Below are positions 8,293 through 64,000 of a stretch of 64,000 bases of DNA, piece after piece. Each line of letters starts with the position of its first letter. Positions within the stretch are counted from its first letter, which is position 1. The translations under genes were made by a program, and so were the position numbers. The notes beneath the pieces were generated by a model that was not told where the DNA came from, ran no database searches, and saw nothing but the letters and a program-made list of their open reading frames with translations. Source of the DNA: an uncultured archaeon (GTDB lineage Archaea; Aenigmatarchaeota; Aenigmatarchaeia; QMZP01; JAFGSV01). Location: contig CAZLFZ010000001.1 of the NCBI GenBank assembly GCA_964559215.1, positions 75,287-139,286 on the forward strand, given 5' to 3'.

Positions 8293-8316
8293 AGTATTAT
8301 GTTGATATCGTTGCTT

Positions 8317-26855: not shown

Positions 26856-27374
26856 CTACCACACAACGACTTCAATCGTTGCGATTTTGTTATCGGCTGG
26901 AATAAAACCGAATCTGGTAACTGTGGCACGTGATGCAATGTGATGCCAGATTGTAATATTTTCGGGAGGCGTACGACCGCACACGACGTATTCATGACCG
27001 TCAGTCCCATTCACCACCACATGCATGTGGTGCAATTCGGTGTATGGAAGGTCCTCAATCATACTGAAGTTGTACAACACATCAAGATAGTTGTAGTAGC
27101 ATGTATGGTTAAAATCCTGCATTTTGGTCTTGTCCAATAAAGGCCATTCACTGACAATTCCATTCACAGGATCGTTTAACAAAACCTCGGATATCTGTAT
27201 AGCCTTGCTTTCCAAAAAATTGGACAGAAAGCGCGCATGATATAGGTTCATGTTGATGGACAAATAATTGACGGCATAGACTATGATGCCAAAGAGTATG
27301 AATATCGCTATCACAAATTCGAAGACAAGCTGACCCTTCATTTTATCCATCCCGTATTCCGCTTCGACTCTCAT
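26856..27374 (-). CDS. Type IV pilin-like protein (class III signal peptide)
   Basis: MKG/QLVFEF with Glu at +5, followed by a hydrophobic helix; ATGA-coupled to the upstream platform gene. Confidence 0.7.
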   Translation of the reverse strand: MRVEAEYGMDKMKGQLVFEFVIAIFILFGIIVYAVNYLSINMNLYHARFLSNFLESKAIQISEVLLNDPVNGIVSEWPLLDKTKMQDFNHTCYYNYLDVLYNFSMIEDLPYTELHHMHVVVNGTDGHEYVVCGRTPPENITIWHHIASRATVTRFGFIPADNKIATIEVVVW

Positions 27375-28294: not shown

Positions 28295-28339
28295 CGTTGT
28301 TTTTGCTCTGATTCCTAGCTCTATTTTGAATCACCTAAG

Positions 28340-29188: not shown

Positions 29189-29196
29189 GTTAATTC

Positions 29197-31047: not shown

Positions 31048-31106
31048 AAAAACCTCGTTAAACGTTGGATATGGGATTAAAACCCTCTTATTCAGGCATG
31101 CAAGTA

Positions 31107-31523
31107 TCACTCTAATATAATATTATATCCTCTCTTATAAATTATAATTTCACCTTTACTGCTTGTCGAATTTCCTGAAAATGTGTACCTCTTACCCAGT
31201 TGATATAAATCCGAAGTGGCGGTAATCCCTGTCTCCCTGATAGTTACATTGAGCCTTGAACCTGTAAAGAGCATATCATATCCCTCACCGCTTATTTTTT
31301 TCGGTATTTTCAATTCAGCAGAAACGTTCAAATGCTCGAATTTGCTGAGCTGCAGGACCTGAGCAGAAATAAGGTCTCTCACGGCCTTTACCTGGTCATT
31401 TGCCGATACATCAGTAAAATAGGACTGGTAGAGCTGAAAAAGCCCGAAGCAAACTATAAATATTGCCACAGAAATCATGAATATCAGCACCTGCTCAAAA
31501 ATAAGTGTCTGGGCTTTTCTCAT
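31107..31523 (-). CDS. Pilin-like protein (class III-like signal peptide)
   Basis: MRKA/QTLIFEQ followed by a hydrophobic helix; lies in the pilus operon. Confidence 0.65.
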   Translation of the reverse strand: MRKAQTLIFEQVLIFMISVAIFIVCFGLFQLYQSYFTDVSANDQVKAVRDLISAQVLQLSKFEHLNVSAELKIPKKISGEGYDMLFTGSRLNVTIRETGITATSDLYQLGKRYTFSGNSTSSKGEIIIYKRGYNIILE

Positions 31524-47346: not shown

Positions 47347-49407
47347 TCACGTGTCATCCTCTATTTTTCTGGCCCTTCTCTTTGCCTCTTCCCTCTCCTT
47401 TTCCATAATCTCTCTGGCCCTTTCCCGCGCCTGTCTGGTTTGCTCATCGGCTATTTCCCTCGCCTGGCGAACAGACCCCTCAAATTCCTTGAAGCTCCCT
47501 ATCGGCTTTTTCTTCCCCTCCAGATAGGGAAGGTCGCCCAGGCCAAAGGCCCCCTGCTTCCTTAATTCCTCCAAATCACCACCAGCTTCTATGAATTCTT
47601 TAACCTCAGAATACCCACCGAAATACACCCAGTCCTTGACAAAGCCCCCCGGCTTTTTGCTATCTCTCAGGCCCCTCTTCGCCCTGAATGTAGCCATCCA
47701 ACATTCCTCATCCGATATCCCATATGACTTGAGCTTTACGAAAAGGTCGTGAAACCCCATTTTCAAGGCATAATGTGTGGCGATGACCCTCAGGGCATAG
47801 GCAAATTCAGGCTCTTTAGTCTCTCCCCCTGCCTGTGCATGCAGTGCCCCGCCTTCCTCCGTGGGCCAGTAACCGGAAGTTCCGTAGCGCAGAGTGCCGT
47901 AACCCCTTTCCGCCCCCCTGGCGCTCCTCTCTACATGCCACCCGACTTCGTGCCTGACAAGCCCCTCCGTGTATTTCTCTAAGGGGACATTCAAGACCTT
48001 TTTTCTTGGAACCTCTACCATCTTCTCGGAGAAATGAACCCTGGTTATGGGCGTCTCTGTTATCTCGACCTTCCACCCCTTTATGCCCCTTTCATGCATG
48101 TATTCTTCCATTCTTTTTTTGACAAATTCGGGGTTATACGGATAGGTCTTTCCACTCCCGCCCATTTCGGATTCCGCGTGTTTTTTACAAACCCCTTCCG
48201 CTTTTTTCACAGTCCCAGAATTTGGAAGCCCATAAACCCGAATGGAATATTTCGTTATCGCGGGGGTTCCTATCAGCCTTAAAAATTTCAACTTGCTCAT
48301 GAGGTCTATCCTCTTCTTCTCGATAATCCTCCCCCACGGGCTCTCCTTATAATCAATGCGCAGGTCCCTCAAGGACCTCATTATTTCTCCGGTCTCCCTC
48401 ATCACATCCTTCTCGACGAATTTAAGGCCCTCGTACTCAAACCTCGGATTATAGACCTCGCCCTTCATTAATGCCTCAAAGAATTTCCCCTTTTCCTCGT
48501 TCAGATTTGTCGGCGTTAAAAATATGTAAAGATTGTTTATGTCATATTTCTCGATTATTTCGGTAAGCTTTTCGTCCACCCCCCTCAGAACCGCATCGCT
48601 TTCAGGCAACCCCGGCCCGACACCGCCCATTTTACCTGCAATATCCCTGGCCCTTCTCTCTGCCACTTCCCCCTCTTTTTTCACAATCTCTCTGGCCCTT
48701 TCCCTTGCCTGTCTGGTTTCTTCTTCAGCTATTTTCCTCGCCCGTTTCTCAGCCTCCGATTTCCCGGCGTCAGCCAACTCCTGCTTCCTCGATAGCGCTT
48801 TTAACCCTCTTTTTTGCTGTATGCTGCCCATCGGCCCGACCTCCCAGTGCCTGTGATACACCATTCTACCATGCCCTGGGAATACGAGGGCTTCCCCCCT
48901 CCCATGCTTTTTCGCTTCTTCTGCGCTTTCCATCAGTTCGTGTGTCTTCGCCAGCTTGCCCTTTTTGTACAGATTCTCTGCTTGGCTTTTGCTTATGCCG
49001 TCAGGATTCTGTTGTGAGAACCCCCGCGGTCCCCAGTACCGCACCATAGACCAGGCACCCGGAATGGCACTTGACTCAACAACAAGCTTTCCTGGGTCTT
49101 TGATAACAATCTCTTCAAGCACACCCTTCTTCGCCAGGTTGCTTGCCCTGACCCATATGTTAACAGCTTTTCTGAGCGGTATATCATCCATTACCGCTTC
49201 CTTAACGCTGGGATTCGCCTCTACTACGTCCTTTAAGCGCTCACTGGTTTCAGAACTCAAGGCATTTGATAATTTTTTCAGCTTGCCAAATTCAAAATAA
49301 TCTTCGGTGCGCACCGGGCATAGGGGATTGCTGCACTTGTAAAGTTCCCCTCCCGACTCGAATTTTCTGGCTTCCAGTTCATCATTGCAGTACGGACATT
49401 TTGGCAT
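47347..49407 (-). CDS. Zn-ribbon plus DUF1704/MATCAP-like gluzincin metallopeptidase
   Basis: N-terminal CPYC...CSNPLC; YNPRFEY; HEVGWH (HExxxH); TEEGGA; RAKRG; F.KD.VY..GY. Confidence 0.75.
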   Translation of the reverse strand: MPKCPYCNDELEARKFESGGELYKCSNPLCPVRTEDYFEFGKLKKLSNALSSETSERLKDVVEANPSVKEAVMDDIPLRKAVNIWVRASNLAKKGVLEEIVIKDPGKLVVESSAIPGAWSMVRYWGPRGFSQQNPDGISKSQAENLYKKGKLAKTHELMESAEEAKKHGRGEALVFPGHGRMVYHRHWEVGPMGSIQQKRGLKALSRKQELADAGKSEAEKRARKIAEEETRQARERAREIVKKEGEVAERRARDIAGKMGGVGPGLPESDAVLRGVDEKLTEIIEKYDINNLYIFLTPTNLNEEKGKFFEALMKGEVYNPRFEYEGLKFVEKDVMRETGEIMRSLRDLRIDYKESPWGRIIEKKRIDLMSKLKFLRLIGTPAITKYSIRVYGLPNSGTVKKAEGVCKKHAESEMGGSGKTYPYNPEFVKKRMEEYMHERGIKGWKVEITETPITRVHFSEKMVEVPRKKVLNVPLEKYTEGLVRHEVGWHVERSARGAERGYGTLRYGTSGYWPTEEGGALHAQAGGETKEPEFAYALRVIATHYALKMGFHDLFVKLKSYGISDEECWMATFRAKRGLRDSKKPGGFVKDWVYFGGYSEVKEFIEAGGDLEELRKQGAFGLGDLPYLEGKKKPIGSFKEFEGSVRQAREIADEQTRQARERAREIMEKEREEAKRRARKIEDDT
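47369..48743. repeat. Dispersed ~96-nt duplication (47369-47464 and 48647-48743, offset 1278 nt) encoding a charged helix
   Basis: AREIADEQTRQARERAREIMEKEREEAKRRAR versus ARKIAEEETRQARERAREIVKKEGEVAERRAR; shared DNA words such as ATCTCTCTGGCCCTTTCCC. Confidence 0.8.
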
Positions 49408-50877: not shown

Positions 50878-51996
50878 TCAGGCAACTTCCACGCTGACGT
50901 CACCGATGTCAAACGTCCCAGTTCCGCTGATTTCGAGCCAGTTGGTGTCGATATCCAGCAGATCAGCGCTGAAGGGAATCCTGTTCCAGCCAGGCTTTGC
51001 ATCAACGGATCCCGCACTCTGTTCGTTGAGCTTTATTTGCAGCCTACCTGGTCTTTCCACATCTTCCACGTACATCCGGACCACGCTGCCTTTCGCTTTC
51101 AACGAGTTCAGCTGAGACTCGGTCAGCTCGAAGCGCTCGCGCATTACCCTCTGGTTCTTGCTAACGTACGTCTTCAGTATCACGTCCTGCAACTCGAACG
51201 AGCCATCCACAGCCAGGAAGGTCAGCCTGTTGTCACCGGGGATAATCGAAGCCGTTTGCAGGCCGGTGTCCGTGAACTCGACGCTGTCCTGCCTCTCAGG
51301 CTCTGCACTGTAGATTCCTTCGCCGTTCACCTTTACTACGAGGGTACCTAACCTGCTTGCCGTGAACCAGCTCAGATCGAACCTGTCAAGGGACTCCAGC
51401 TCGTCCTGCGAAACAGCGAAATCCAGGAACTTCGCAGGGCCGTATTCAGCGTTCATCTTGAAGTCCCTTATGTTGTAAATGGTCGCCGCCCAAAACATGA
51501 CGCCAGGCCCCTGGGCAGCTATTTCCATGCCGTTTTCTTCTTTTATCTGGGAAGGCAGAACGGTAACGGTATGCTTGCCCGTGTCTGCCATCTCGTTGTA
51601 CAACTCTGCGCCGTTCCATGTTATGACGAGGTTGCCGTACTGGTTCGTGTCATCGACGGTGAAGGTGATCTCCCCGCTCTTGAGCCATTCAAGAATGTGC
51701 GAGGGAACAAGTACGGTGAAGCGCTCGCTGCTCAATCCGAACAGGCCAGCTGTTATTTCCATCCTGGGAACGGATTTCAGATTTTCTAGCTGCGGCAGGC
51801 CCACGCCGAATGAGCCGAAATCCTGCACCCTTGACACGTAGTTCTCTGAGTACCCTATCGTGCCCGCGCTGAATTCGTGAATCACCCTGATGTCTGCGGG
51901 AACGCCCTCCGGATAGTAAGGGAAATAAGCGGAAACTGCTAGGAGAATGATAAGAACAACGGCAATTATTATCAGCGACCCTATGAACGTGTCCAT
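50878..51996 (-). CDS. Membrane-anchored beta-rich surface protein of unknown function
   Basis: Single N-terminal TM helix; 372 aa. Confidence 0.7.
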   Translation of the reverse strand: MDTFIGSLIIIAVVLIILLAVSAYFPYYPEGVPADIRVIHEFSAGTIGYSENYVSRVQDFGSFGVGLPQLENLKSVPRMEITAGLFGLSSERFTVLVPSHILEWLKSGEITFTVDDTNQYGNLVITWNGAELYNEMADTGKHTVTVLPSQIKEENGMEIAAQGPGVMFWAATIYNIRDFKMNAEYGPAKFLDFAVSQDELESLDRFDLSWFTASRLGTLVVKVNGEGIYSAEPERQDSVEFTDTGLQTASIIPGDNRLTFLAVDGSFELQDVILKTYVSKNQRVMRERFELTESQLNSLKAKGSVVRMYVEDVERPGRLQIKLNEQSAGSVDAKPGWNRIPFSADLLDIDTNWLEISGTGTFDIGDVSVEVA

Positions 51997-52155
51997 ATTA
52001 ATTATTCAACCCCAAATCTATTAAAATTAATACCCTCTATTGGCAGCCAGGATAAAAGGATACGAATAGTAAAAAAGGCCGATTTAGACATTCCCTAGCA
52101 AAACAATGTTGTAAGTTACATCTTACCAGGAGGTGAAAGTAAATCAGGCAGCTGA

Positions 52156-52701
52156 TTATTTCTTAGATTTTAACACGCCTATTAGAGTTTTGATTAATTT
52201 TGCATTGTTTTCGTTAGATTGCTTCACTTCCTTCCCCAGTTCTTTCATTTCTTTGGAGATTTCACCATATTTTTCAGCCATTTGATTAAAATTTTCCCCT
52301 GTACTCTCTCTGAGTTCGATACCAGCCAATGCTATAATTTCCGATCTCTCAAGACTCTGGGCCTCGAATCCCGGGTTTATTTTTTCAGCATCGGTATAGT
52401 CTATGTAGAATTGAGATCTAAACTTTTTTTGAGGAGGTTTCTCGAAACCATTGTAAAATACCTTAACTTTTGCATTAATCTTAAACCATCCATGCGTAGT
52501 TCTAATCTTCAGTTCTTTCCTTAGTTTTTCTAGCACGGCTTTATTTCCTTGACAAAACGCTTCAACCCTTCCATTCTCCAGGTTTTTCACAAACCCCTTT
52601 ATGCCTAAATTTTGAGCAGATTGTTTAACAAATGCTCTATACCCAACACCCTGCACATTACCAGAAATAACAAATCTAGCCGTAACCAGACCTTTGTCCA
52701 T
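52156..52701 (-). CDS. acyP: Acylphosphatase with C-terminal coiled-coil extension
   Basis: [23 protein letters not shown]; likely start MDKG at 52701. Confidence 0.8.
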
Positions 52702-52721
52702 AGCTTTATTTTTAGCCACAA

Positions 52722-54101
52722 TCAGACACCAAGACCTTCCCAGCTCGCTCCGCCTTCCACCATGGTCTTCTTGTAGATGATGAATATCATCAGCACGATG
52801 ACAACCACGACGATTCCGATGACTGCCCACAAGAATATGTTTGGTCCAGGTGCTGGTTCGGGACCGATTGGAATCTCATCGCCGCCAGCTGGAGCGGCAC
52901 CAGTCACTGATCTCAGCTCTTCCCAGTCCTCAAGGCTTGCGCCTCCGCCTGCGTCATATTCCGCGATGAAGCCATCCTGGTCCAGCTTTGAGGCGTCTGC
53001 AACCATTTCGTCAACGGTCAGCCAGGCATCCGCTGACCTCTTGGTGCCGTCAGCTCCCGTGACCACGGCCGACAATTTGTAGGTTTTCCTGTCGGTCGTC
53101 GTCGGCCTGACAGTGAACGTTATGCTCTTGCTCTCCCCCTTGGCGAGATACACCGAATAAGGGCTGAAATCGGACTCGAGGCCGACCTCAAGCGAGACAG
53201 AGGCGGTCAGTTGCTGGCTGTCGCCATAATTCTGGAATTTCAATACATACATGGTGCTCTGCTGGCCGATTATGCTCTTTGTTTCAGGGGTAAGCCAGGC
53301 ATAGAAGCCTGCCTGAGGCTTTTCAGCAGCTTTTCTGACATGCAAGACACCCCTGACGGCCTTCTGGCAGTCTGCTATGTTGCACCCCTGGACTGAAACC
53401 ATGACGATGAAATCGTAATCCCCGGCCGTGCTGGGCGCAGCAATCTGCAGCGGGACCTGCTGCTGGCCGGCTCCCGCTTCAACGCTCGTCTTGCTGGCCG
53501 TTATCCGCATAGCTTCGGTGCCCTTGGCTATTTCGAGCGTCAGGGGCAGGCTCGAGTCCAGAACCAGCGTGTAAGTCACGATTTCCCCTGGGTCGGCATA
53601 CCGCTCCGGCTGGGCGAGGGCGGCGCTGAAGATGTCCGTATGCCCTCCCATTCTGTCGCAGGCGTTTCCTGTGGCTTCGCCTTCGACAACATCCACGTCT
53701 TCATATTTGCTTACGCAGACGCCGTAATCGTAGGTCAGATTGCCGGAGCTCGGCGTTGATAGCGTGACGTGTATGTTCGCCTGATCTTCCACTTTCCTGC
53801 CTTTAGCGCTGAAGCAGATGGGCACTACTATGATATTGTCGGGACCCGCCACGAAGGAGGTGAAGTGATTGTCGATCCAGCCGCCGCCGGTAACCGGTTC
53901 CTTGGCCGTCAGGGTATATTCCCCCCTGCCGTGCTGGCCGAATACGATGGTCGTGCACAACTCCTTATCCGGCTTAACGGAAAAGTACGTCGCCGCCTGG
54001 ACACCGGCAAACAGCAATGACAGGGATACAAGCAGGGCTGTGAAAATCAGGAAAACCCCGTTTTTGACTGCAAACTTGTTTCTTTTTTTGCTTTCCATCA
54101 T
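52722..54101 (-). CDS. Secreted protein with C-terminal TM anchor (paralog of 61903-63234)
   Basis: Signal peptide, GRGEYTLT...GGGW.D, C-terminal TM plus YKKTMV tail. Confidence 0.8.
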
Positions 54102-54118
54102 ATCACATTTATTAACCT

Positions 54119-57100
54119 TTAAGCCACCATTCCAGCCTCATATGAGCATGCGTAGTCCAGGCAGGACAAGGCTTTATGACCATAGTCGTCCTCTTCGCCA
54201 CAATCGTCTATAGTGCAACAGTTTATTCCACCGAAGATGCATTTACCAAAACAGCAGTTTCCTACGTCACCAACAAAGACATATTCCATACCTTTCCTTG
54301 GCCCTATGAACAGCCTTTCTTTCTCAGTCGCCCTGCAGTCGCTCAGATTAGGCTGACCGTCGCAGCGGTTACATGGGCTGTCCTCGGTATAGGTATAGCA
54401 TATATCATTCACATATTCGTGACTTCTGACTGACTCCCCTGTTGGTTTATAAGGGTCGGTGGCGGTTCCTTTGCCAGTATACGCAGCTGGCTCCGCATAA
54501 CTACCACTAGCCTGGGAATTAAATCCGAATTGATAAAAACAACTGCTTCTCCTTTCATCGCATGGTTTCCATCTAACAGTGATCGTACCTTCAAGTACTG
54601 CGCCTTTGCATTGAGCCTCTTTGTCAGCAGCAGTTTCACCCGACACATATTGTGTGCACGCCAGCGCTATCAGATTGTCTCCTTCTCCCCGATATCCGGC
54701 ATAAGGATCGCTGCAATCCAGGCCGTAACCATCAGACCTGACTGTGCATTTAATTTGCCCGCTGCTTTGAGCAAGCCTGAAAGTCCTAGTTGGAGACTGT
54801 TTTCCTATAATTCCCTTTGCAGTAATCCACCAATTCTCAAATGTGATGTAAATTTGCCCGTATTCCCCCCGCCCTCCGTACGATGGGTAGTCGTAGGTAA
54901 TCGTTAATGGATCTCCGCGTCCCAAGGTTGCTGGAGGTCTTGGACTGGTACTAACACCCGTGTCACTCCAGCCCGTGGATGCGCCAAGATTATACGAGAA
55001 CTGGGCCCACCTCTCCATCAGCCTTGCTGTGTCGCCCTCAAGCTGCTGATGGCATGCCGCCAGCTGCCTGTAGTAATCCGCTATTCTGCGGGACCTGTCA
55101 TATCCCGTTTCCCCCTTTCTAAGCCTTGTCGACAGCTGCGATTCCGCCTGCATCATGCACGCCTCGTAGTTAAGCGTCACGCTTCTGAGATTGTTTATCA
55201 TCATCAGCAACTGCAGAGCCATGCTCAACAGGTTGCATATCTTTGCTACCGGCTCTAGGGCGCTTCGTCCCTTAAAATACATAATAAGCCCACATATTAC
55301 CGTTGCAGCTATTACCGCGGTCTTGAAGCTGTCCTCGCAGTCAAGCATCTCGCCCATGACCCAGGCGAACCCTAGCCCTGCTATCAGTCCGACCACTCCA
55401 GCACCAGTTTTCCCCATGCCACTCGTGGCGCTCATCAGCTGGGTAAAGATTTCCATCGGAAGGCCGGTACCAGTCTGGGCTGTCACGCTGGGCAGTATAG
55501 CATTTACAACAAAGGACGGGGCAGGAGACGCCTTCTCTGTAGGGGTGTATGGCACATATTCAAATTTAGGGGTGGTACTCAACTCATCCCAACCTTTACG
55601 ACCGAAATCATCAGGAACCACGATAATAGTCGGTTTTTCAGGTGTCGTAGGTGGTTTCTCCTTTACAGCAGCCATCAGGGAGCAGACGGTGCATATCGCA
55701 AGAATGGTGACGATAGAGCAAACAATCCTGTTCGCCTTTTCCATGGCTTTCTTTGCATCCTTAAGAGCCTTTTCAAGCTCCAGCAGATCCTCGTGCTTGA
55801 CCTCGTTGACCGTGACCCTGACATCGTTTACGCTGGTTACCTTTATTACCTTCTCGTACTCGCCTGTGTGGCTAGGAACCTGAATAGTGAGGGTGGCGTC
55901 TTTTATCTGGTGCTGGCTTACATGCTTGTCGCCTGAGAAGGCTGATATGACATAAGAGCCGTCAGGGTTGAGTATGACGTATAGGTTCCAGCCGTCAGCT
56001 ATGTCCTCGCCCGAAGAAATGGCGTCGGAGAAGGCTTCTTCACCGTTCCAGACATAGGACGTGGAAATTACACTCGCCATCCAGGGCTTGTGGCTCAGGT
56101 GGGCCCTCAGCTTCACCGGGTCCTGGAAAACGCACTGGTATGTCAAAACCTTGTAGGTGTCCATGTCCCATGGGGCGAGCTGGCAGTTTGTCGTCAGGGC
56201 GGCCGGCTCTATTGTCATGGTTATCTCGCTTTCCGAGTAGCAGGTGCCTTCAACGGTACATACGTCTTGCTTGTTGGCGCACCCGCAGTCCTGGCAGCAG
56301 TTGTCTTGTGTTTCGCCTAGGCTCTTGTCGCATTTGCCGTTCCCGCAGTTCGGCAGGCCTGCTGTGCCGACGTTGACAGTGAAGTCGTCGCTGACCTCTT
56401 GCTGGAATATCTGCCCCCTGTAGTCGCTGTACGTGATCCTAGCGGAAATGTCTAGGCTGTGGCTGCCCTCTTCTGCGCAGGCAGGAAAGAAATAAACAGG
56501 GATTTCGCACCTGTAGGAGCTTGACTGCAGCCCCCCGTACATCAGGGGCTCGCACGTGAAGTACTGCTCGGTGAATGTGTTCCCGGCATATTCCATGAAC
56601 CACTCTATGTAATGCGTGTCGTAAGGCATGTTGTCTATATGGACCGTCACAACGATGTTGTTTTCGGGGTCGTCCTTCACGGAGCAGTCCAGCGCATCGG
56701 GGCTGACATCATCAACTATCAATGAAATCTGGTCAGGGTCAACACAGACTATCTCTTTCGTGCACACCCTGCCGCCGCTGCACCCCGCGTCAGGGCAGCA
56801 CTGGTCTATTATCTCACCGAGCTCGGGGTCCTGAAAGCCGTCAGGAACACACTGCCTCTCCCTGGGTATTTCAACTGAAAACGATACAGGCTTGATTATC
56901 CTCTTGGTAATCCTGTTCCCGCTCTTGTCCTGCCATGTTATGGTGGTCTCGAAATTCGGTGTGTAGGAGCCGGCCGACCAGCAGAACGGATTGAAGTCCG
57001 AGACAGGGATCGAGCATCTCCATGCATAAACGCTGTACTCCGTGCTATTCACCACTGGCTCGCATATCCCTCCCATCTCCTCGATTCTGCTGTCATCCAG

Positions 57101-59878
57101 ATAAGCGTCGCCAAACTCGATGCCGCCCGTGGCCGGGGAATATGGCTTCTTGGTAACTGATGCCAGGATTATGACCTGCTTGTGTCCCCTCTGCTCTTGG
57201 GGCACCCTGCTGCAGTCTATGTTCGCCGGGTTGACGCTCACAGCGAGGTCTACCTGGCCCTGGTCGACGCACCCGGAATACAGGGTGCACACCTTGTTGT
57301 CAGGGCAGCCCATGTCCCTGCAGCAGTTGTCACTGGTCTCGCCAAGCTCCGGGTTCGGCTCCCCGTTCCCGCACAGCGGCAATCCTTGCACGTAATCCAG
57401 CTCGAATTCCGCTGACACAGGCTTTCCCTCATATGGGGCGTAATGACCACCCAGGCCGCCGCCCAGGATGTTAAGCGTGAGTTTCAGATCAGCGGGAGGC
57501 AGGTTCGGACAGGCCGGGAACATGGATACGGGGACGGAACACTCAACATCCCCTGTATGGTGGCCATATTCCGTTATCATGGGCTGGCACGTGAACCCCG
57601 GGATGTTCTGGGCCGTGTAGATCTTCGAGTTGTATTCGAGCTTCCAGTTGAGAACGTTGAAAGGTTCGTATGCGCTCTCGGGAACGTTCTGCACGTGGGA
57701 CCTGAAGGTGAAATCATCACTTGGTTGCATGCCGTTTTTTGGGGAGCAGTCGATGTTGTTCCTTGCCGGTAGGTCTTCGGGATTTACAGCCAGGGAGATT
57801 TCAATTTCGTCCTTGCACCCGGACGCCGTGCAGACGAGGCCACCCTCGCACTGGCAGTCCCAGCAGCACGTCTCGGGAGTTTCCCCGATTCCCGGCTCGC
57901 ACGCCCCGTTCTTGTTGCATGTCCTCTGCCTGGCCTTCATCACCTCAAAGGAGAAAGGAACTGTCAATTCCTTGTATTTCAAATCGTTCGACTTCCTGCC
58001 CGCGGCGTCGTCAAAGTACGTGAACAGCACGGTGAAAAGCACATCCTTGATTCCCAGCTTGAAGCATCCCGGGAAGGTCTCTGGGCCGGCGAGGGGCAGC
58101 TTGCACAGGTATATGTCGCCCTGCTGAACGCACTGTGACAGCCTGTACCTGCTGTTATCGTACGTGTAGGCAATGGTTTCGAAGGAGCTGAAGAAGGCAG
58201 GCCCCTTGGCAAACGTGAACCTGATGTCAACCTCCCCACCCTGGGTGCAGTCAACCGTCTCGGGCAGGATCTTCACCCTCATCCCCATTTCGGATTCGCT
58301 TTTGCAGGCGCCGCTCACGGAGCAGTAGCCATCGATGCATCCTGTGTCCTGGCAGCACGTTTCCGGGGTTTCGACGGGGCTTTCTATATGGCCATTGCCG
58401 CACAGGTGACAGATGTTCTGCGTGCAGGTCTGCAGCTGGCCGGTGTATGGGTCGGCAGGACAGCCGTCGCAGTCAAGGCAGCAGTTCGTGTAGTCCTCCC
58501 CTAGCTCGCATTTGCCGTTCCCGCACGTCGGCGCCATGCAGACCCCGTTCGGGACCTGCTCGGTGTTGCAGTATTCTCCGGTCGGGCATCCGTCGCAGTC
58601 AAGGCAGCAGTTCGTGTAGTCCTCCCCTGGCTCGCATCCTCTCTTCCCGCATTCAGCTAAGATACACTCCTGCAGCTGGGAGCTGTAGTAGTATCCATGG
58701 CCATAGACATCGTCACACCTCTTCCCGGGGGTATTATGGCAGTCAACAGGGCAAGTGCCTGAGTCCTCTGACAGCTCGCAGTTCCCGTTCCCGCATTCAG
58801 GGGCGATGCATTTGCCGTGGGGTATGTTAATGTTGGGGTCGCAGTCCAGCCCGGCCGGACAGCCAGCGTCAACACAGCAGTTCGTCTCGTCTTCGACGGG
58901 GTCTTTTACACCGTCCCCGCATACGTGGCAAAGACCGTTCGGATACTCGCTGTTCGCAGAACATTCCTGTCCTGAGACCGGACAGCCGCAGTCAAGGCAG
59001 CAGTTTTCTGTATTTTCCCCGACATCACAGGCGCCGTCTCCGCAGCTTGGCAGGGGATTGGAAAAGAATGTGACGGGGTTCGATACGCTCCCCTTGGCGA
59101 ATGCCAGCAGATAATCCTTCGCCACTTTTTCAATCACCCTTCTTGACGGCTTGTACTTTTCAAAGTACGGCACGTCTATTTCTGTTTTGTCAGCAACGAT
59201 TTCGTAAAGCTCGGTCGTCTGCTTCCCGTTCACAGCACCAAGGGCAGCCCTTTCCATCCAGCTTGCCGGTATCATGTAATAAGTCTCGATGAATTCCCTG
59301 ATCCAGGACGGCTCTATTCCAGGATTGGCATAAACATCGATATGTGAAATGTCATAATCCTTGTGCTCGAAATTCTGGACGCCCGATCTGGTGGCCTGGT
59401 CCCAGTACCCGACCCAGAAGTCCACCTCATCATAGCTGAATTTTATCATGGTCAAGAAGTTGGCCGCATTGTTCCTTGATACGTCCCCCCAATAAAAGGT
59501 GCCCTTCTCCCCCGAGAGATAGGAGTCGGCCTCGACTGGCTCGTAATCAACGCAGTCAAGCGGGTTGTTGTCCTTGCATTTGAACAGGTAGATTTTCTTG
59601 ACGGAATAAAGGGGGTCCTTTCCTATAACCTCGATTTTCACCTGCACGTTTTCCCATTTGTAGTCTGACGGATCATGGACAAATTCAAAGCTTTTGTCGA
59701 CGAGAAGGTTGGCATCGAGTGTTATTTCCACCTTTTCACCCGTTGTCGTGACGGTGGCGCCTCTCATAATCTGCTGATATATGGAGATTTGGATGGCCGA
59801 TGCAAAGGAGATACTGATCACTAGGTAAGTGCATACGACCGCTATTACCTGCAGCAATATCTTTTCTACGCTGTCCAT
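54119..59878 (-). CDS. Giant (~1,920 aa) Cys-rich surface protein
   Basis: N-terminal signal/TM; ten CGNG..C..GE...CC.D.GC-type repeats interspersed with ~130-aa beta domains; C-terminal coiled-coil plus hydrophobic helices; likely start 59878 or 59884. Confidence 0.85.
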   Translation of the reverse strand: MDSVEKILLQVIAVVCTYLVISISFASAIQISIYQQIMRGATVTTTGEKVEITLDANLLVDKSFEFVHDPSDYKWENVQVKIEVIGKDPLYSVKKIYLFKCKDNNPLDCVDYEPVEADSYLSGEKGTFYWGDVSRNNAANFLTMIKFSYDEVDFWVGYWDQATRSGVQNFEHKDYDISHIDVYANPGIEPSWIREFIETYYMIPASWMERAALGAVNGKQTTELYEIVADKTEIDVPYFEKYKPSRRVIEKVAKDYLLAFAKGSVSNPVTFFSNPLPSCGDGACDVGENTENCCLDCGCPVSGQECSANSEYPNGLCHVCGDGVKDPVEDETNCCVDAGCPAGLDCDPNINIPHGKCIAPECGNGNCELSEDSGTCPVDCHNTPGKRCDDVYGHGYYYSSQLQECILAECGKRGCEPGEDYTNCCLDCDGCPTGEYCNTEQVPNGVCMAPTCGNGKCELGEDYTNCCLDCDGCPADPYTGQLQTCTQNICHLCGNGHIESPVETPETCCQDTGCIDGYCSVSGACKSESEMGMRVKILPETVDCTQGGEVDIRFTFAKGPAFFSSFETIAYTYDNSRYRLSQCVQQGDIYLCKLPLAGPETFPGCFKLGIKDVLFTVLFTYFDDAAGRKSNDLKYKELTVPFSFEVMKARQRTCNKNGACEPGIGETPETCCWDCQCEGGLVCTASGCKDEIEISLAVNPEDLPARNNIDCSPKNGMQPSDDFTFRSHVQNVPESAYEPFNVLNWKLEYNSKIYTAQNIPGFTCQPMITEYGHHTGDVECSVPVSMFPACPNLPPADLKLTLNILGGGLGGHYAPYEGKPVSAEFELDYVQGLPLCGNGEPNPELGETSDNCCRDMGCPDNKVCTLYSGCVDQGQVDLAVSVNPANIDCSRVPQEQRGHKQVIILASVTKKPYSPATGGIEFGDAYLDDSRIEEMGGICEPVVNSTEYSVYAWRCSIPVSDFNPFCWSAGSYTPNFETTITWQDKSGNRITKRIIKPVSFSVEIPRERQCVPDGFQDPELGEIIDQCCPDAGCSGGRVCTKEIVCVDPDQISLIVDDVSPDALDCSVKDDPENNIVVTVHIDNMPYDTHYIEWFMEYAGNTFTEQYFTCEPLMYGGLQSSSYRCEIPVYFFPACAEEGSHSLDISARITYSDYRGQIFQQEVSDDFTVNVGTAGLPNCGNGKCDKSLGETQDNCCQDCGCANKQDVCTVEGTCYSESEITMTIEPAALTTNCQLAPWDMDTYKVLTYQCVFQDPVKLRAHLSHKPWMASVISTSYVWNGEEAFSDAISSGEDIADGWNLYVILNPDGSYVISAFSGDKHVSQHQIKDATLTIQVPSHTGEYEKVIKVTSVNDVRVTVNEVKHEDLLELEKALKDAKKAMEKANRIVCSIVTILAICTVCSLMAAVKEKPPTTPEKPTIIVVPDDFGRKGWDELSTTPKFEYVPYTPTEKASPAPSFVVNAILPSVTAQTGTGLPMEIFTQLMSATSGMGKTGAGVVGLIAGLGFAWVMGEMLDCEDSFKTAVIAATVICGLIMYFKGRSALEPVAKICNLLSMALQLLMMINNLRSVTLNYEACMMQAESQLSTRLRKGETGYDRSRRIADYYRQLAACHQQLEGDTARLMERWAQFSYNLGASTGWSDTGVSTSPRPPATLGRGDPLTITYDYPSYGGRGEYGQIYITFENWWITAKGIIGKQSPTRTFRLAQSSGQIKCTVRSDGYGLDCSDPYAGYRGEGDNLIALACTQYVSGETAADKEAQCKGAVLEGTITVRWKPCDERRSSCFYQFGFNSQASGSYAEPAAYTGKGTATDPYKPTGESVRSHEYVNDICYTYTEDSPCNRCDGQPNLSDCRATEKERLFIGPRKGMEYVFVGDVGNCCFGKCIFGGINCCTIDDCGEEDDYGHKALSCLDYACSYEAGMVA
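58464..58637. repeat. Near-perfect 48-bp direct repeat inside the giant gene (58464-58511 and 58590-58637)
   Basis: CCGTCGCAGTCAAGGCAGCAGTTCGTGTAGTCCTCCCCT(A/G)GCTCGCAT, one mismatch, offset 126 nt (42 codons). Confidence 0.9.
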
Positions 59879-61773
59879 GAGCATCCCACAACATTTGAAC
59901 ATTCGGCCGTTGATATCGGCTCCATCCCACAGCTTGTGTACAGGCTGCGCACGTTTTCCAGGTTGGATTCGTCGAAGCCGTCGAGGCTGGGCGCGTAAAC
60001 ATACAGGTCTGAGCCTGCCGGGGTAAATCCTGTCATGTTCACGAACCCTCCCAGGTTCTGGCCGTCGTAGGTTTCGATGCCGACATAGTATTCATCAACG
60101 GGCAGGTTGGCCACATCAAGCTCCGAGACAAAAGAGCCGGCATCGTTCACGTTCACAACGATCTCGGGCTCAGGGGGAGCGCATGCATCCCCCATCCTCG
60201 ACATGCCCACTTCGATTCTTTCATTGGCTGGCGACACCGAATCTATCGTATATGTTGAGCCTGTCTTGCTTATACCGACCATGTAAAAATTGAACGTGAA
60301 GTGCTTACTTCTCGGTATGTCAATCTGGATGTTTCTGAGGTCTGAATATGAATAGCATTCCGTGTACTCGTTTTGTCCGTCTCTCACCTTTAATGCTCCC
60401 CACACGGGCGGCACCTTTGCTTGGATGGGCAGTCCCCGGCCGGTTGTTCCCAGCTCGCATCCATAAAAAGAAACGGTGGCACCTGTCACATCAGAACCGT
60501 CTTTGTATCGAACAAATATGTTAGCATCTTCCGTTGCTTCTTCAACACAAGTATCACCATATGTTCTCGAGAATTCGCTCTGATCTGCAGCGGTGAGAGT
60601 CGGTATAGCGGTGCATGCGCCGGGAGCGCTGTTGTCTATGTAAACAAGGACAGCGAACTTGAAACTCTTTCTCAATGAACTGTCCCACACGTTGACCACG
60701 ACGGGATACCGCATGCTGTATGTCTGACTGTATTCGGCAACCCTCATTCCCTGCATGAATCTCATGAAGGGCCCGACACGTGGCTGGATTCTCAAATGCT
60801 CAGGGGCCGAGAACTCGCTCCTGTCCAGCCCATTGTCGTCACCGAAGTAAAAGTTCACGTTCAGGTCATCGTATTTTTTGCTGTTCGTCTCTGCGTTCCC
60901 GCTGCAGACGCCAGACCCGCTTGATACGGTGCTGTAGTCTATGACAGCCGGAACAGGGAAAAACTCTATCCCCCACTTCTGTATTTTCCCCTCGTCACTA
61001 ATCGGGAACTCCTTTCCCAGCAGCGTGTTGGACAGCGAGTATTTGATGTGCAGTTCCATGCAGTCCCGCAGATTACTCCATGTGAACGTGTACGACCTTT
61101 CTGCATTCCCTATGGTCGGAATCCAGCACGGCCTTGAATATTCATTTGACTGCATGAGCGACATCAGCAGGTGGTTGTCTAGGACCCGGCAGTCGGCCTG
61201 CATCCGGGCAAAGTTCTTTGCAAAATCATAAATCCTGCCCATTTTCGTGGCAATCTCCACGACGTAGGGCTGGGGCATCGCCTGGCCCTGCACCGTTGTC
61301 GGCAGGTTGACAGACAGGGTTATCTTGTTGTCGTAGAAGCTGGGGGTTATGGTCATGGACTGCTTCCCGAATGTGACGGTCCGGCCTCCTATTACCTGGG
61401 AGTCAGGCATGTGCGATTCGATATATTCCTTCACGCCTTTGGCAAACCCCTGCTGCAAATCCGGGATGTTGTAATTGCCGCATAGCTGCCACAGCGCTAT
61501 CTTGTTCCCCAGTGCCTTGTGATTCACGTATCCCAACGCAGGCGTTGAGTCGGCAAGATAGCCGCCGTTCTTGTACATCTCCGATATGGTGCTCGTGGCC
61601 GCTCCCCTGATCATATCCCCGACATAGCTTGCAACTGATTTCTGCTCCTCGGTCAGCGCAGACGGTTGGATAGATGGCGGCGTGACGGTGGAGTAGGAGT
61701 AGACGCCGACTACAATTGCGATTATGACCAGTCCAAGAATCAATGCAAACTCAGCCTGAGCTTTTCTAGGCAT
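59866..61773 (-). CDS. Large protein with a class III-like (prepilin) N-terminus; putative pilus-associated adhesin
   Basis: MPRKA/QAEFALILGLVII; 635 aa; overlaps the giant gene start. Confidence 0.7.
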   Translation of the reverse strand: MPRKAQAEFALILGLVIIAIVVGVYSYSTVTPPSIQPSALTEEQKSVASYVGDMIRGAATSTISEMYKNGGYLADSTPALGYVNHKALGNKIALWQLCGNYNIPDLQQGFAKGVKEYIESHMPDSQVIGGRTVTFGKQSMTITPSFYDNKITLSVNLPTTVQGQAMPQPYVVEIATKMGRIYDFAKNFARMQADCRVLDNHLLMSLMQSNEYSRPCWIPTIGNAERSYTFTWSNLRDCMELHIKYSLSNTLLGKEFPISDEGKIQKWGIEFFPVPAVIDYSTVSSGSGVCSGNAETNSKKYDDLNVNFYFGDDNGLDRSEFSAPEHLRIQPRVGPFMRFMQGMRVAEYSQTYSMRYPVVVNVWDSSLRKSFKFAVLVYIDNSAPGACTAIPTLTAADQSEFSRTYGDTCVEEATEDANIFVRYKDGSDVTGATVSFYGCELGTTGRGLPIQAKVPPVWGALKVRDGQNEYTECYSYSDLRNIQIDIPRSKHFTFNFYMVGISKTGSTYTIDSVSPANERIEVGMSRMGDACAPPEPEIVVNVNDAGSFVSELDVANLPVDEYYVGIETYDGQNLGGFVNMTGFTPAGSDLYVYAPSLDGFDESNLENVRSLYTSCGMEPISTAECSNVVGCSWTA

Positions 61774-61902
61774 GCCGCACTCCTGTTATAATGTTATTAG
61801 ATGTTATAAATATATATTTTACCAGCCATTTTATATAAACCTGTATAGCTTTAACGGTTGACCCTGTAAATCTCCTTTTACCAAACATCCTTTTGCAAAG
61901 TC

Positions 61903-63234
61903 TCAATATCCGGAGTAAGGCTGTTCCGTTTCCTGGACGACCATAGTCTTTTTGTATACGTAAAGAATGATGGCGGCTATTGCCACCACAGCCGCAAATA
62001 TAAGCAGCCAGTTTAGCGGTCCTGACTGGCCATTTGGCGGCTTTGGTTTGTCATCATGCACGCTAGTAGCTTCTTGGATACCCTTCCAGTCATCCAGGCT
62101 TGGCCCTGCATTGTATTTGGCAGCATAATCATCCGCATCGGGTCTGAGGCCAGGATCACTTTCAGCCATCCTCTGAACATCCGCTACAGGCTCTTCCACG
62201 GTCAAGAAGGATTCCGCTGTTTTTTTACCGCCGGTCTCACCCTCAACTTCCGCCCTGATTATATACAGCTTATGCTCGTCTGATAGTGGAACGATGGTGA
62301 AGTCTATCTGCTTGCTCATGTCCTTGCCAACCCTTACATCTAGAGGGATGAAATTGGTGTTGAGCGATTCGTCCAGATCGAGGTTCACGCTGAAACCCTG
62401 CTCGGGGGCGAAGTTGTGTATGGTGAGGAAAAACTTCGCAGACTGAGTCCCCATGACGTTTTTGCTCTTCGGCGACAACTCGACCCTGAAGCCCTCCAGG
62501 CCGGGAGCAGTGGAAACGTGCAGAGTTCCAGTCACCCTCTTTTCGCATGAGGGATAGTCGCAATCATTCGCCCTGGCCACGATGGTGAAGGCATGATCGC
62601 CAGGCTCCTGGGGGGAATCCACGACAATCTCGACTGTATATTCGCCGGGCGTTTCGATTGTGGTGCTGGATATGTCCATCTTGGGCCCGCTCTCCTTGTC
62701 CAGGGATATTGACAGATCGAATTCGCTTGATAACAAAAGCGTGTACGTGACCTTTTCACCGGGGATCGAAAACATCTCCGATTCCAGCAGGTCCACGCTG
62801 AACAGATCGGTGTGCGAGCTGGCAGCCTTGCATGGATCTTCGCTGGACTCCACCACATCCACATCTTCGTGCTTGCTCACGCATATACCGTAATCATATC
62901 TTATCTCACCCTCGGGGGTTTCCAGCGTGAAGTGCAGGACGGCCTCGTCGCCTACCCTTCTGTTCTTTGTGCTGAAGCAGACAGGGTTTATGACTGGATT
63001 GTTTGGACCTGAGGTGAAGCTAGTCCTGTGCGTGTCGACCCATCCACCGCCCGGATAAGCAGGGTCGTCCACGGTGAGCGTGTACTCTCCCCGGCCGTTA
63101 TCCCCGAAGATAACGGAGATGCAGAATTGTGTGTCGGGGTTCATGGAAAGGTATGTGATGGACTGAGCCGAAGCGGTGGGAAGGAAAAGCGCCAGAAAGA
63201 GGGAGAAGAGGACAAGCGATTTTTTACCCTCCAT
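61903..63234 (-). CDS. Secreted protein with C-terminal TM anchor (paralog of 52722-54101)
   Basis: Signal peptide MEGKKSLVLF...; GRGEYTLT...GGGWVD; C-terminal TM plus YKKTMV; likely start 63234. Confidence 0.8.
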   Translation of the reverse strand: MEGKKSLVLFSLFLALFLPTASAQSITYLSMNPDTQFCISVIFGDNGRGEYTLTVDDPAYPGGGWVDTHRTSFTSGPNNPVINPVCFSTKNRRVGDEAVLHFTLETPEGEIRYDYGICVSKHEDVDVVESSEDPCKAASSHTDLFSVDLLESEMFSIPGEKVTYTLLLSSEFDLSISLDKESGPKMDISSTTIETPGEYTVEIVVDSPQEPGDHAFTIVARANDCDYPSCEKRVTGTLHVSTAPGLEGFRVELSPKSKNVMGTQSAKFFLTIHNFAPEQGFSVNLDLDESLNTNFIPLDVRVGKDMSKQIDFTIVPLSDEHKLYIIRAEVEGETGGKKTAESFLTVEEPVADVQRMAESDPGLRPDADDYAAKYNAGPSLDDWKGIQEATSVHDDKPKPPNGQSGPLNWLLIFAAVVAIAAIILYVYKKTMVVQETEQPYSGY

Positions 63235-64000
63235 ATTCCCCGCCCTGCCCGTAATAGAATGACAGATCATCCCCGACCTCGGCCTTCGCCAGAGAGATGT
63301 CCTTTTGTATGTCATTTTTGACTTCAGCTTTTGTATCTTTCATCTTGTTCATTATGAAGAGCATAGCCGCAGCAGCTATGATAGAAATCACAACACAGGG
63401 TTTTGTCAGCCAAGTGCAGCACTTCCACAGAGTGGCATGACATAAGGCCGTCCCCGCTGCAAGCCCAATAGCATATGCCCCAAGAAAACCTGCGGTGCTT
63501 GCAGCAAAAATGCCTATCCCCGCTGCAATACTATAACCAAATATGATAGGAGCGAACCAGCCGAAAATATCAACGAGCAAACCCCATGCACCGATAATTA
63601 ACTCCGACTCTAGAAGAGCATAACCGAAGCATGGCGTGCAGAACCCAAAGATGAAAAATATTATTTTAATGTAGCCCTCCAGCTTTTTCATTCCTTCTTT
63701 ATAATCCCCCAGTTGGTTCTCCACGGAAATCAGCTTGTCGCTTTCCTTGACGTTGTAGTCCAGCCCGATTTCGTTCTTGCTTTCAAGAGGGATTATGATT
63801 TCATTTTCTTGGTCGTAAACCACAAGGGTGAAGCCGAGGGCAAGCTTGTGATCCCTTTTTATGTTTTTGGTGCTTGATTCCACTGGCTTGGGCAGCACCT
63901 TAAGCAGCCAACCAGTCGCGGTCTTTTCTGTCGAGGCTATGGAATCCTGTATTTTGCCGCTTTTATTGCCATCAAGATAGTAGAACAGATCTATTGGATC
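63224..64000 (-). CDS. 3' part of a large gene entering from beyond the window; paralog of the giant protein's C-terminal module
   Basis: Frame is open from 64000 (DPIDLFYYLDGNKSGKIQDSIASTEKTATGWLLKV...), matching SYVWNGEEAFSDAISSGEDIADGWNLYV of the giant protein; coil, then CxxC hydrophobic helices. Confidence 0.75.
   Translation of the reverse strand, partial: DPIDLFYYLDGNKSGKIQDSIASTEKTATGWLLKVLPKPVESSTKNIKRDHKLALGFTLVVYDQENEIIIPLESKNEIGLDYNVKESDKLISVENQLGDYKEGMKKLEGYIKIIFFIFGFCTPCFGYALLESELIIGAWGLLVDIFGWFAPIIFGYSIAAGIGIFAASTAGFLGAYAIGLAAGTALCHATLWKCCTWLTKPCVVISIIAAAAMLFIMNKMKDTKAEVKNDIQKDISLAKAEVGDDLSFYYGQGGEYGG

Follow-up and report, generated by a model that had tools for sequence, protein, structure and literature searches.

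On the reverse strand of the window, the whole 64,000-nucleotide stretch of DNA analysed here, lies a gene whose product is a real Cys-rich surface protein of a tiny salt-marsh DPANN archaeon (Aenigmarchaeota). Its open reading frame spans 54119..59902 (-) and encodes 1927 aa; residue numbers throughout follow this frame, beginning at 59902. The ATG at 59878, chosen as the start in a preliminary description of the sequence, is the right one because homologues begin MDRIEK and the database copy is 1919 aa long. This ATG overlaps the stop codon of the upstream gene by 13 nt. None of the RNA runs carries the gene.

From its N-terminus, the protein consists of a signal peptide, a head of two beta-sandwiches, Cys-knot repeats with beta domains, and a heptad helix running into a hydrophobic helix (TM1). 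Next come a variable linker, Gly/Ala-rich helices and two helices of ~42 aa, and the chain closes with an Ig-like domain and a Cys-rich tail. The gene sits within a tandemly duplicated three-gene cassette, a setting that adds to what was described before. The cassette is a conserved operon of a prepilin-like protein, the giant protein and an Ig-like anchored protein, in which the start and stop of the first two genes overlap. The region around it is an island of envelope genes. The features are listed below.

52722..54101 (-): downstream partner, 459 aa, with signal peptide, Ig-like domains and a C-terminal membrane helix followed by KK
54119..59878 (-): gene of the giant Cys-rich protein; translation from its ATG at 59878 gives 1919 aa
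54122..54502 (-): Cys-rich C-terminal end; last ~100 aa conserved between alleles
54426..55673 (-): allelic cassette, aa ~1411-1825; unrelated or very divergent replacement in a co-occurring strain
54503..54955 (-): Ig-like beta-sandwich, aa ~1650-1800 (pLDDT 70-84; Foldseek matches to arrestin, FnIII and RhoGDI-type sandwiches)
54977..55255 (-): two ~42-aa helices, aa 1550-1642: the amphipathic "TM4" with an MQAESQL extension, and the ETGYDRSRR..LAACHQ helix
55268..55462 (-): amphipathic helix and Gly/Ala-rich hairpin TM2-TM3 with acidic DCED turn, aa 1481-1545
55463..55663 (-): hypervariable Cys-free Pro/Thr linker, aa 1414-1480; 27-33% identity between alleles
55664..55792 (-): three-heptad coiled coil running into the hydrophobic C-x8-C-x2-C helix TM1, aa 1371-1413
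55808..58297 (-): stalk of beta domains and four single Cys-knot repeats (aa 662, 844, 1018, 1186)
58298..59044 (-): six clustered CGNG-type Cys-knot repeats, aa 287-535
58453..58651 (-): adjacent near-identical repeat pair, copies at 58453-58525 and 58579-58651
59048..59797 (-): conserved N-terminal head of two beta-sandwiches, aa 36-285 (AlphaFold pLDDT 78)
59798..59878 (-): Sec-type signal peptide, MDSVEK, hydrophobic core and ASA/I (..SFASA/IQ), from hydropathy and the conserved ASA
59866..61773 (-): upstream partner, 635 aa, with prepilin-like (class III signal) N-terminus RKA/QAEFALILG
61903..63315 (-): paralogue of the 459-aa partner (38% identity), in the upstream cassette copy
63224..64000 (-): truncated by the window edge, the C-terminal end of P0013, a paralogous giant of 1495 aa

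The two giants are 39% identical. A class III signal, as in archaeal type IV pilin-like proteins, would show a basic residue, G/A, the cleavage site, Q at +1 and then a hydrophobic helix. In the 635-aa partner, the N-terminus RKA/QAEFALILGLVIIAIVVG is kept in the two cassette copies and across three genomes, and has no match to a dedicated predictor or family model. The family of this partner comprises 40 proteins, which lie on the same contigs as the giants and are co-distributed with them.

Head, stalk and family limits

The signal peptide covers aa 9-35, with its hydropathy peak at aa 15-33, and its ASA motif is kept across the family of giant proteins. A confident strand opens the AlphaFold model of the head immediately past it. 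Because a Sec-type signal peptide stands at the N-terminus, the head would be the free, distal end of the protein and the hydrophobic module the proximal one, so that the earlier picture of hydrophobic helices placed distal to a long stalk fails. The head is present in 14 proteins only, and its model finds generic FnIII/Ig matches alone when searched by Foldseek against PDB and BFVD.

The ten CGNG-type repeats were correctly recognized at the outset, with six clustered at aa 287-535 and four single ones at aa 662, 844, 1018 and 1186, the singles lying 489-645 nt apart in the DNA. The protein has 119 Cys residues (6.2%), and the description of a giant Cys-rich surface protein with a repeat stalk stands. 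The copies at 58453-58525 and 58579-58651 are indeed alike at the DNA level (86% identity over 73 nt, including a 39-nt identical run). However, the recent duplication proposed from this likeness does not stand, as no orthologue lacks either copy and the 39%-identical paralogue has both as well. The pair, repeats 4 and 5, is ancestral to orthologues and paralogues, and constraint or gene conversion accounts better for the local identity. The stalk is 80-100% identical among orthologues, while neighbouring genes are less conserved (~70%). Rapid variation in repeat number, which had been suggested as a check, was not seen: nearly all family members have four single-repeat units, and one has six.

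A second new finding is how tiny this lineage-restricted family is. It comprises 13-14 proteins among 1.8-5.8 billion, one of them named Candidatus Aenigmarchaeota, and an exhaustive profile search recovered only 13 members. The giant protein has no family match in Pfam or NCBIfam; a Yip1 match at E=0.033 scored 14.5 bits, below its cut-off of 28.6, and is regarded as noise. The PDB gave no match by sequence, either to the protein or to a profile of the module. Neither Pfam and NCBIfam nor Foldseek of the head indicated similarity to known S-layer proteins. Neither of the two parts modelled, the head (against PDB and BFVD) and the C-terminal module (against PDB), matched a HAP2-like or trimeric hairpin fold. 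The hydrophobic helices had been likened to pore-forming, translocator or fusion modules; Pfam, NCBIfam and the PDB profile place them in no sequence family of alpha-helical pore-forming toxins or translocators, and no fusogen was matched by Pfam, NCBIfam or PDB sequence. Foldseek of the C-terminal model against PDB likewise returned only Ig-like sandwiches at aa 1650-1800. Since the helices were modelled at low confidence (pLDDT 35-50), the lack of a fold match says little about them either way.

The C-terminal module and its allelic cassette

The heptad helix (aa 1371-1392, with L,L,L,A,M,A,V at the a/d positions by direct reading) and TM1 (aa 1393-1413) are predicted to form one continuous helix. 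TM1 has a Kyte-Doolittle value of 2.54 and an insertion-scale sum of −2.0, and its hydrophobicity is comparable with that of the membrane anchors of neighbouring genes. A signal peptide and at least one strongly hydrophobic helix (TM1), the features expected of a Sec-exported surface protein with an anchor in its own membrane, are thus both present. The linker behind TM1 ranges from 32 to 369 aa across the family and is Cys-free in 10 of 12 members, whereas the remainder of the protein contains 5-7% Cys. Three Gly/Ala-rich or amphipathic helices follow (aa 1498-1520, 1525-1544 and 1550-1591), then a further helix at aa 1600-1642; aa 1498-1544 are predicted to form a hydrophobic helical hairpin with a four-residue turn. 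The hydrophobic module occupies 72-82% of the chain length and is succeeded by further extracellular-type domains, ending in a tail with 18 Cys in 282 aa. The order first read near 55150-55800, from heptad helix and CxxC helix through Pro/Thr linker and helices to Cys-rich tail, is confirmed, and it is not due to chance because it is kept in 12 homologues.

Within the C-terminal region, homology with the shorter paralogue is confined to the coiled coil and TM1 (hhalign probability 88.7%). In that paralogue, more membrane helices follow the TM1 equivalent after 3-6 residues. Because they are shared with this 1495-aa protein, the coiled coil and TM1 appear to be the anchor of the stalk. The hydrophobic helices are therefore most likely an anchor in the cell's own membrane and not a distal weapon.

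A third new observation is that the segment behind TM1 is an allelic cassette, swapped whole between co-existing strains. Its left edge is the end of TM1. The replacement was found by blastn of the window against L004 and on contigs of the salt-marsh runs X9, X11 and X13, and it occurs in backgrounds that are 95-97% identical. Such exchange between strains suggests diversifying selection. A variable C-terminal domain with a co-varying immunity gene would characterize a polymorphic toxin of the CdiA/Rhs type. Here, the downstream gene is 95.4% identical in DNA between the two alleles and does not co-vary with the cassette, and the toxin-immunity reading was rejected.

Membrane topology and competing readings

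The stalk, linker and tail all look extracellular, yet they are separated by an odd number of credible membrane helices. The tails of the family contain 5-6.6% Cys against 1.2% in the cytoplasmic proteins of the window, hold CARDB, Ig-like and PSI-like modules, and have an ectodomain-like composition even when Cys is excluded. They also avoid the N-x-S/T sequon as exported domains do (2 forward against 50 S/T-x-N), whereas the cytoplasmic proteins of the window show no avoidance (27 against 26). N952 is the one conserved sequon. The linkers behave like the tails (2 against 12, P=0.0065), and in P0008 a Pfam PSI domain (27.7 bits, over the cut-off) lies within the linker.

These observations bear on the possibility that TM1 is a stop-transfer anchor in a single-span or three-span protein, with the whole C-terminal third in the cytoplasm, perhaps as a signalling or scaffolding domain, and the hairpin merely dipping into the membrane. 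The odd number of helices that are credible by hydrophobicity favors this arrangement: TM1 stands alone in P0008, P0009, P0010 and P0016, TM1-TM3 are present elsewhere, and TM4 is amphipathic. The basic flank behind TM3 also fits a cytoplasmic continuation, the basic amphipathic 35-aa C-terminus of the paralogue would be best placed inside, and the PSI domain of P0008 puts linker and tail on the same side. However, the Cys content, modules, composition and sequon avoidance of the tails all oppose a cytoplasmic location, and we consider it unlikely. An ordinary anchor with the remainder cytoplasmic, which had been named as the outcome that would overturn the original idea, is not what the sequence indicates either, since the remainder is Cys-rich, bears PSI, CARDB and Ig-like modules and shows the sequon avoidance of the stalk.

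We propose instead, with a probability of about one half, that the giant is a lineage-restricted cell-surface protein anchored in its own membrane, in a host- or cell-contact complex with its two partners. A cleavable signal peptide would export a rigid ectodomain of ~1,330 aa, in which the two-sandwich head is followed by disulfide-knot repeats alternating with beta-sandwich domains, and the three-heptad coiled coil would run into TM1, which would fix the stalk to the membrane of the cell itself. The variable loop would follow TM1, after which TM2-TM3 and probably TM4 would bring the chain back outside, where two long helices, the Ig-like domain and the modular Cys-rich tail would lie beside the membrane. 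The giant and the 635-aa and 459-aa partners would together form one cell-contact or host-attachment structure. The giant probably works in such a complex with its co-operonic partners, and its standing as a candidate host-contact protein is plausible. The analysis shows the protein's anatomy, the limits of its family, the duplication of the cassette and the replacement of alleles, whereas topology, complex formation and a role in adhesion or host contact are inferred.

Several features weigh on the own-membrane anchor. Two extracellular parts would call for an even number of spans between them. The target has four hydrophobic segments between stalk and tail; TM4 is amphipathic or charged in half of the family, about half of the members having two or three charges in it. 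TM2 and TM3 are marginally hydrophobic (insertion-scale sums +0.1 to +5.6) and are absent or marginal in four members, and TM1 is the only credible membrane helix of P0008, P0009 and P0010. The PSI domain and sequon avoidance of a supposedly cytoplasmic linker argue against this anchor. So does the polarity of TM1, which has a basic N-side, an acidic C-side and small residues (AGG) past the core, resembling a signal peptide and unlike the type-I anchors of neighbouring genes (..YKKT). On the supporting side, hand counts give an acidic TM2-TM3 turn (24 D/E against 9 K/R) and a basic flank behind TM3 (24 K/R against 5 D/E), fitting turn-out and flank-in. The matching lengths of the TM1-bearing helix (41 aa) and the TM4-bearing helix (42 aa) are also as expected for antiparallel helices lying half in the membrane and half outside. 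Because the charge-based rules contradict each other for TM1 and for TM2-TM3, we do not claim any topology as shown. An internal start at M1387, which would make TM1 a true signal peptide, is weak, as Met stands at that position in only ~8 of 12 members and the sole Shine-Dalgarno-like motif is badly spaced. The gradient from a most conserved head to a most variable membrane-proximal part is unlike typical adhesins and also argues against the anchored host-contact model.

A modified form of the original idea would turn the odd helix count to account. Here the hairpin would be stored, either packed within a bundle of protein or halted in the course of export, and would insert into a partner or host membrane on contact, by analogy with a fusion peptide, a translocator hairpin or CdiA with its arrested C-terminal half. 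The extracellular appearance of stalk, linker and tail, the signal-peptide-like polarity of TM1, the marginal insertion sums of the Gly/Ala-rich TM2 and TM3, the heptad helices on both sides of the hairpin and the fast-evolving allelic cassette, unusual for a mere anchor, are all in its favor, as is the fact that the organism's group lives attached to host cells through contact molecules that are unknown (PMC11329633). Nevertheless, TM1 is hydrophobic enough to be integrated during Sec export, an archaeal pathway exporting such helices unintegrated is not known, and the TM1 region is common to a paralogue with a plain multi-helix membrane end. There is also no sequence or fold similarity to a pore former, translocator or fusogen (the helices being modelled at low confidence), and the 95%-identical downstream gene lends it no toxin-immunity logic. 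We regard a stored module as quite unlikely. In its most specific form, the cassette would be a strain-specific, contact-activated membrane device with TM1 as an export-arrest or internal signal element, which we hold to be a long shot. Very doubtful, too, is the accompanying step in which the C-terminal third (the Gly/Ala-rich hairpin between heptad helices, the Ig-like domain and the Cys-rich tail) would be stored or separately exported and then inserted into the host membrane. A purely structural S-layer-like or canopy protein would dispense with host contact altogether: the conserved head would make lattice contacts, for which the conservation of head and stalk (80-100% against ~70% in neighbouring genes) is as expected, and virus-driven surface variation would account for the cassette. 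The fixed stalk length, with four units in nearly all members, and the surrounding envelope genes agree with this. In contrast, the lack of similarity to known S-layer proteins, the pairing of the gene with a prepilin-like protein rather than an S-layer anchor, and the maintenance of two divergent paralogous cassettes make a structural role improbable.

Relation to known systems and significance

The giant shares with the SPEARE proteins the character of very large, lineage-specific, membrane-associated proteins of host-dependent nano-archaea. SPEARE proteins of Nanohaloarchaeota reportedly carry protease, adhesion and endonuclease domains and are said to have been proposed as mediators of host contact. 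There is no homology, and the giant family lacks those domains, its building blocks being Cys knots, Ig-like domains and a membrane module of helices. The same overall architecture is found in the YueB/EsaA/PIP-type proteins of Firmicutes, in which a hydrophobic segment at the N-terminus is followed by a long extracellular fibre and then by a C-terminal multi-helix membrane anchor. However, there is no Pfam match to them, and they end at the membrane bundle, whereas the giant goes on into a large tail of extracellular type. With class I viral fusion proteins and archaeal fusexins (FsxA) the giant has in common a signal peptide, a large ectodomain, heptad helices beside Gly/Ala-rich hydrophobic segments, and C-terminal membrane helices, but it gives no match by Pfam, PDB or Foldseek (the last with the head and C-terminal models), and its strongest hydrophobic helix precedes the Gly/Ala-rich ones.

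CdiA resembles the giant in its conserved N-terminal filament and a variable C-terminal region swapped between strains, and its C-terminal half is said to be kept across a membrane until contact. CdiA, a bacterial protein that uses two-partner secretion across the outer membrane, is marked by a VENN-type boundary, by a toxin domain and by an immunity gene that co-varies. No such feature is seen at the giant locus, where the next gene is 95% identical between alleles. Giardia variant-specific surface proteins and integrin-type PSI/EGF stalks are eukaryotic, Cys-rich and of CXXC type, with a single C-terminal anchor. Rigid disulfide-bonded stalks and PSI modules are common to them and the giant family, but homology is limited to the small PSI module that some members possess.

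For DPANN archaea, which spend their lives attached to other cells, hardly any of the proteins that make and specify the contact are known; cryo-ET studies such as PMC11329633 reveal structures and not genes. The locus described here supplies a concrete module of three conserved genes, one of them for a giant stalk protein rich in disulfides. The exchange of one 1.2-kb segment between co-existing strains of one natural population carries the signature of specificity towards a partner, a host or a virus, and metagenomes allow it to be typed. The question of topology can be tested directly, and the answer would be informative either way. If the C-terminal module is an ordinary polytopic anchor, the giants would be a new but unsurprising family of surface proteins; if it is a contact-activated device, no earlier molecular candidate would exist for the way in which a DPANN archaeon breaches its host's envelope or fuses with it.

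Gene anatomy and distribution

The target lies in a single long minus-strand ORF (54119..59902, 1927 aa, whose residue numbers we use). Its true start is 59878, as the preliminary description had it, since homologues begin with MDRIEK and the copy in the database is 1919 aa long; between this ATG and the upstream gene's stop codon there is a 13-nt overlap. The protein contains 119 Cys and is of a known kind, a giant archaeal surface or adhesion protein. The repeats first described were recovered, six clustered CGNG-type repeats at aa 287–535 and four single ones at aa 662, 844, 1018 and 1186 (spaced 489–645 nt in the DNA), and so were the C-terminal elements:

aa 1371–1392: three-heptad helix
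aa 1393–1413: strongly hydrophobic C-x8-C-x2-C helix (TM1)
beyond TM1, in order: Pro/Thr linker, three hydrophobic/amphipathic helices, another long helix, Cys-rich tail

One neighbouring repeat pair is 86% identical over 73 nt. Both copies are present in all orthologues and in a 39%-identical paralogue, so the duplication, originally thought recent, is old.

A word-indexed search found 14 proteins with the N-terminal head and three relatives of the C-terminal part; among these is a hypothetical protein from a MAG assigned to Candidatus Aenigmarchaeota. When 1.84 billion representatives were searched exhaustively by profile, no more than 13 proteins had the C-terminal module. The gene itself was found in 23 metagenomes from salt marshes. 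The window also carries a thermosome, H+-pyrophosphatase, acetyl-CoA synthetase, a type-IV-pilus-like ATPase and two PilC-like genes, and is therefore chromosomal.

Polarity, anchoring and topology

The chain opens with a Sec-type signal peptide whose ASA motif is conserved; a confident strand follows it directly in the head model (aa 36–330, 14 sequences, pLDDT 78). With the signal peptide at this end, the head is distal and free and the hydrophobic module lies proximally, the reverse of the polarity proposed earlier. The modelled head consists of two beta-sandwiches, with only weak, generic FnIII/Ig-like Foldseek matches in PDB and BFVD. Homology between the target and its shorter paralogue extends, in profile–profile comparison (probability 88.7%), over the last strand, the coiled coil and TM1, beyond which the two diverge; in the paralogue, further membrane helices start 3–6 residues after TM1. 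Both observations suggest that TM1 anchors the stalk.

Helix hydrophobicity was summed on an approximate insertion scale, the values reportedly being those of Hessa et al. 2005, and compared across the family. TM1 scores −2.0 to +0.7, the Gly/Ala-rich hairpin TM2–TM3 +0.1 to +5.6, and the amphipathic TM4 (aa 1550–1591) +4 or more; roughly half of the members have two or three charges in TM4. In four family proteins (P0008–10 and P0016), TM1 is the sole credible membrane helix. The flanks of TM1 are basic on the N-side (KANR) and acidic on the C-side, with small residues beyond the core, unlike the KK-terminated anchors of neighbouring genes. Acidic residues mark the TM2–TM3 turn and basic ones the stretch following TM3, which fits a turn outside and a flank inside.

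Family tails carry CARDB (27.9 bits), Ig-like and PSI-like modules and resemble the stalk in composition; the linker (aa 1414–1480 in the target) lacks Cys in 10 of 12 members and holds a PSI domain in P0008 (27.7 bits). N-glycosylation sequons were counted against the reverse motif.

Sequon counts (N-x-S/T; S/T-x-N)
Cytoplasmic proteins of the window: 27; 26
Neighbouring ectodomains: 2; 15
Stalks: 31; 139
Helical modules: 0; 17
Tails: 2; 50
Linkers: 2; 12 (both sequons within 3 residues of TM1)

The motif is strongly avoided in exported domains (window 50878–63315 and family proteins), not in cytoplasmic proteins; stalks of the cassette-A paralogous giants are not depleted (31 vs 42). The 1,330-aa stalk of the target has one sequon, N952 (VVNSTEY; window 56772–56821), kept in close orthologues and a candidate for a true glycosylation site. 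Taken together, these features would put the stalk and the tail on the outer side and leave the position of the linker ambiguous.

Stalk and tail are separated by an odd number of firm membrane helices. The C-terminal model (aa 1349–1811, 4 sequences) is poor overall (pLDDT 52); it shows the coiled coil and TM1 as one unbroken 41-aa helix, a 23-aa and a 20-aa helix with a turn of four residues between them, a pair of long helices (42 and 43 aa) and, at aa ~1650–1800, a confidently modelled Ig-like sandwich, which alone gave Foldseek matches. We favour, as the simplest solution, a four-helix membrane model in which the amphipathic TM4 would be stabilised in a bundle, because of the matching 41- and 42-aa helices.

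A strain-variable segment behind TM1

Stalk identity between the target and the related protein P0003 is 93–100% as far as about aa 1200, and the last 100 aa match at 85–92%; over aa 1400–1815 identity is 27–57%, and there P0003 resembles another family member, P0005, at 70–90%.

DNA of the P0003 contig (L004) against the window
To aa ~1165: 93–99% identity
aa ~1168–1408: 76–82% identity
Window 55673–54426: essentially unalignable
54425 onward through the next two genes: 95–96% identity

The unalignable block has its left edge at the end of TM1. In three salt-marsh metagenome runs (X9, X11, X13), sequence of a second strain matches the stalk at ~97% and 54134–54425 at ~93.5%, with ~54500–56100 uncovered at 85% likeness or more. 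Coexisting strains thus share stalk, extreme C-terminus and neighbours and differ in the cassette behind TM1. Orthologous neighbours are ~70% identical among three genomes and the stalk 80–95%, which makes both the conservation of the stalk and the divergence of the cassette unusual. This allelic cassette, starting exactly behind TM1, and the parity of the topology are the two puzzling features of the target.

Neighbouring genes and function

The locus in three related genomes consists of a three-gene cassette duplicated in tandem:

Gene 1: ~610–640-aa protein, prepilin-like N-terminus KA|QAEFALILG
Gene 2: giant Cys-rich protein (cassette A, 1488–1495 aa, its end at window 63224–64000; cassette B, the target)
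Gene 3: ~445–470-aa Ig-like protein, C-terminal membrane helix, then KK

Cassette A and B paralogues are 34%, 39% and 38% identical in three pairs. The prepilin-like family has only 40 members, always on contigs with giants. The conserved N-terminus of these partners (window 59866–61773; 355–2184 and 8097–10013 on the related contig L001), KAQAEFAL(I/L)LGL, resembles a class III (prepilin) signal peptide. A type-IV-pilus-like operon (27371–31523), ~28 kb off, could process them:

27371–28294 and 28340–29188: two PilC/T2SSF-like genes
29197–31110: PilB-type ATPase
31107–31523: small DUF7266-like protein

On a 24.8-kb contig, a giant from the target's 90% cluster accompanies a prepilin-like partner (P0025) just 81% identical to the window's 635-aa protein, a sign that the cassette may be mosaic in further ways. 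A 1201-aa membrane protein (43697–47302) keeps synteny with the cassettes at every related locus; it combines Zn ribbons at the N-terminus, numerous membrane helices and, at the C-terminus, FnIII-like repeats that each precede a small PSI-like Cys motif. Next to it lies a 686-aa protein (47347–49407) with an N-terminal Zn ribbon and a MATCAP (tyrosine carboxypeptidase-like) domain (E=4e-24).

The preliminary description proposed, as a speculative analogy, a membrane-inserting module akin to pore formers, fusogens or translocators on a candidate host-contact protein. This is supported in part; its polarity fails, and the pore-former analogy finds no support, as searches of the target sequence against Pfam, NCBIfam and PDB gave no match. 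A stored membrane-active module in that spirit is improbable. A cytoplasmic C-terminal third, to be set against the stalk-like tails, is unlikely, though a little less so, and a purely structural envelope protein is an equally unlikely account. We infer a contact function from the anatomy of the target and the lifestyle of the group, whose host-contact molecules are not known (PMC11329633). The leading reading, with a probability of roughly 0.5, is that the target is a self-anchored giant surface protein, variable between strains in its membrane-proximal cassette, and forms with its two cassette partners a structure for cell contact or host attachment.
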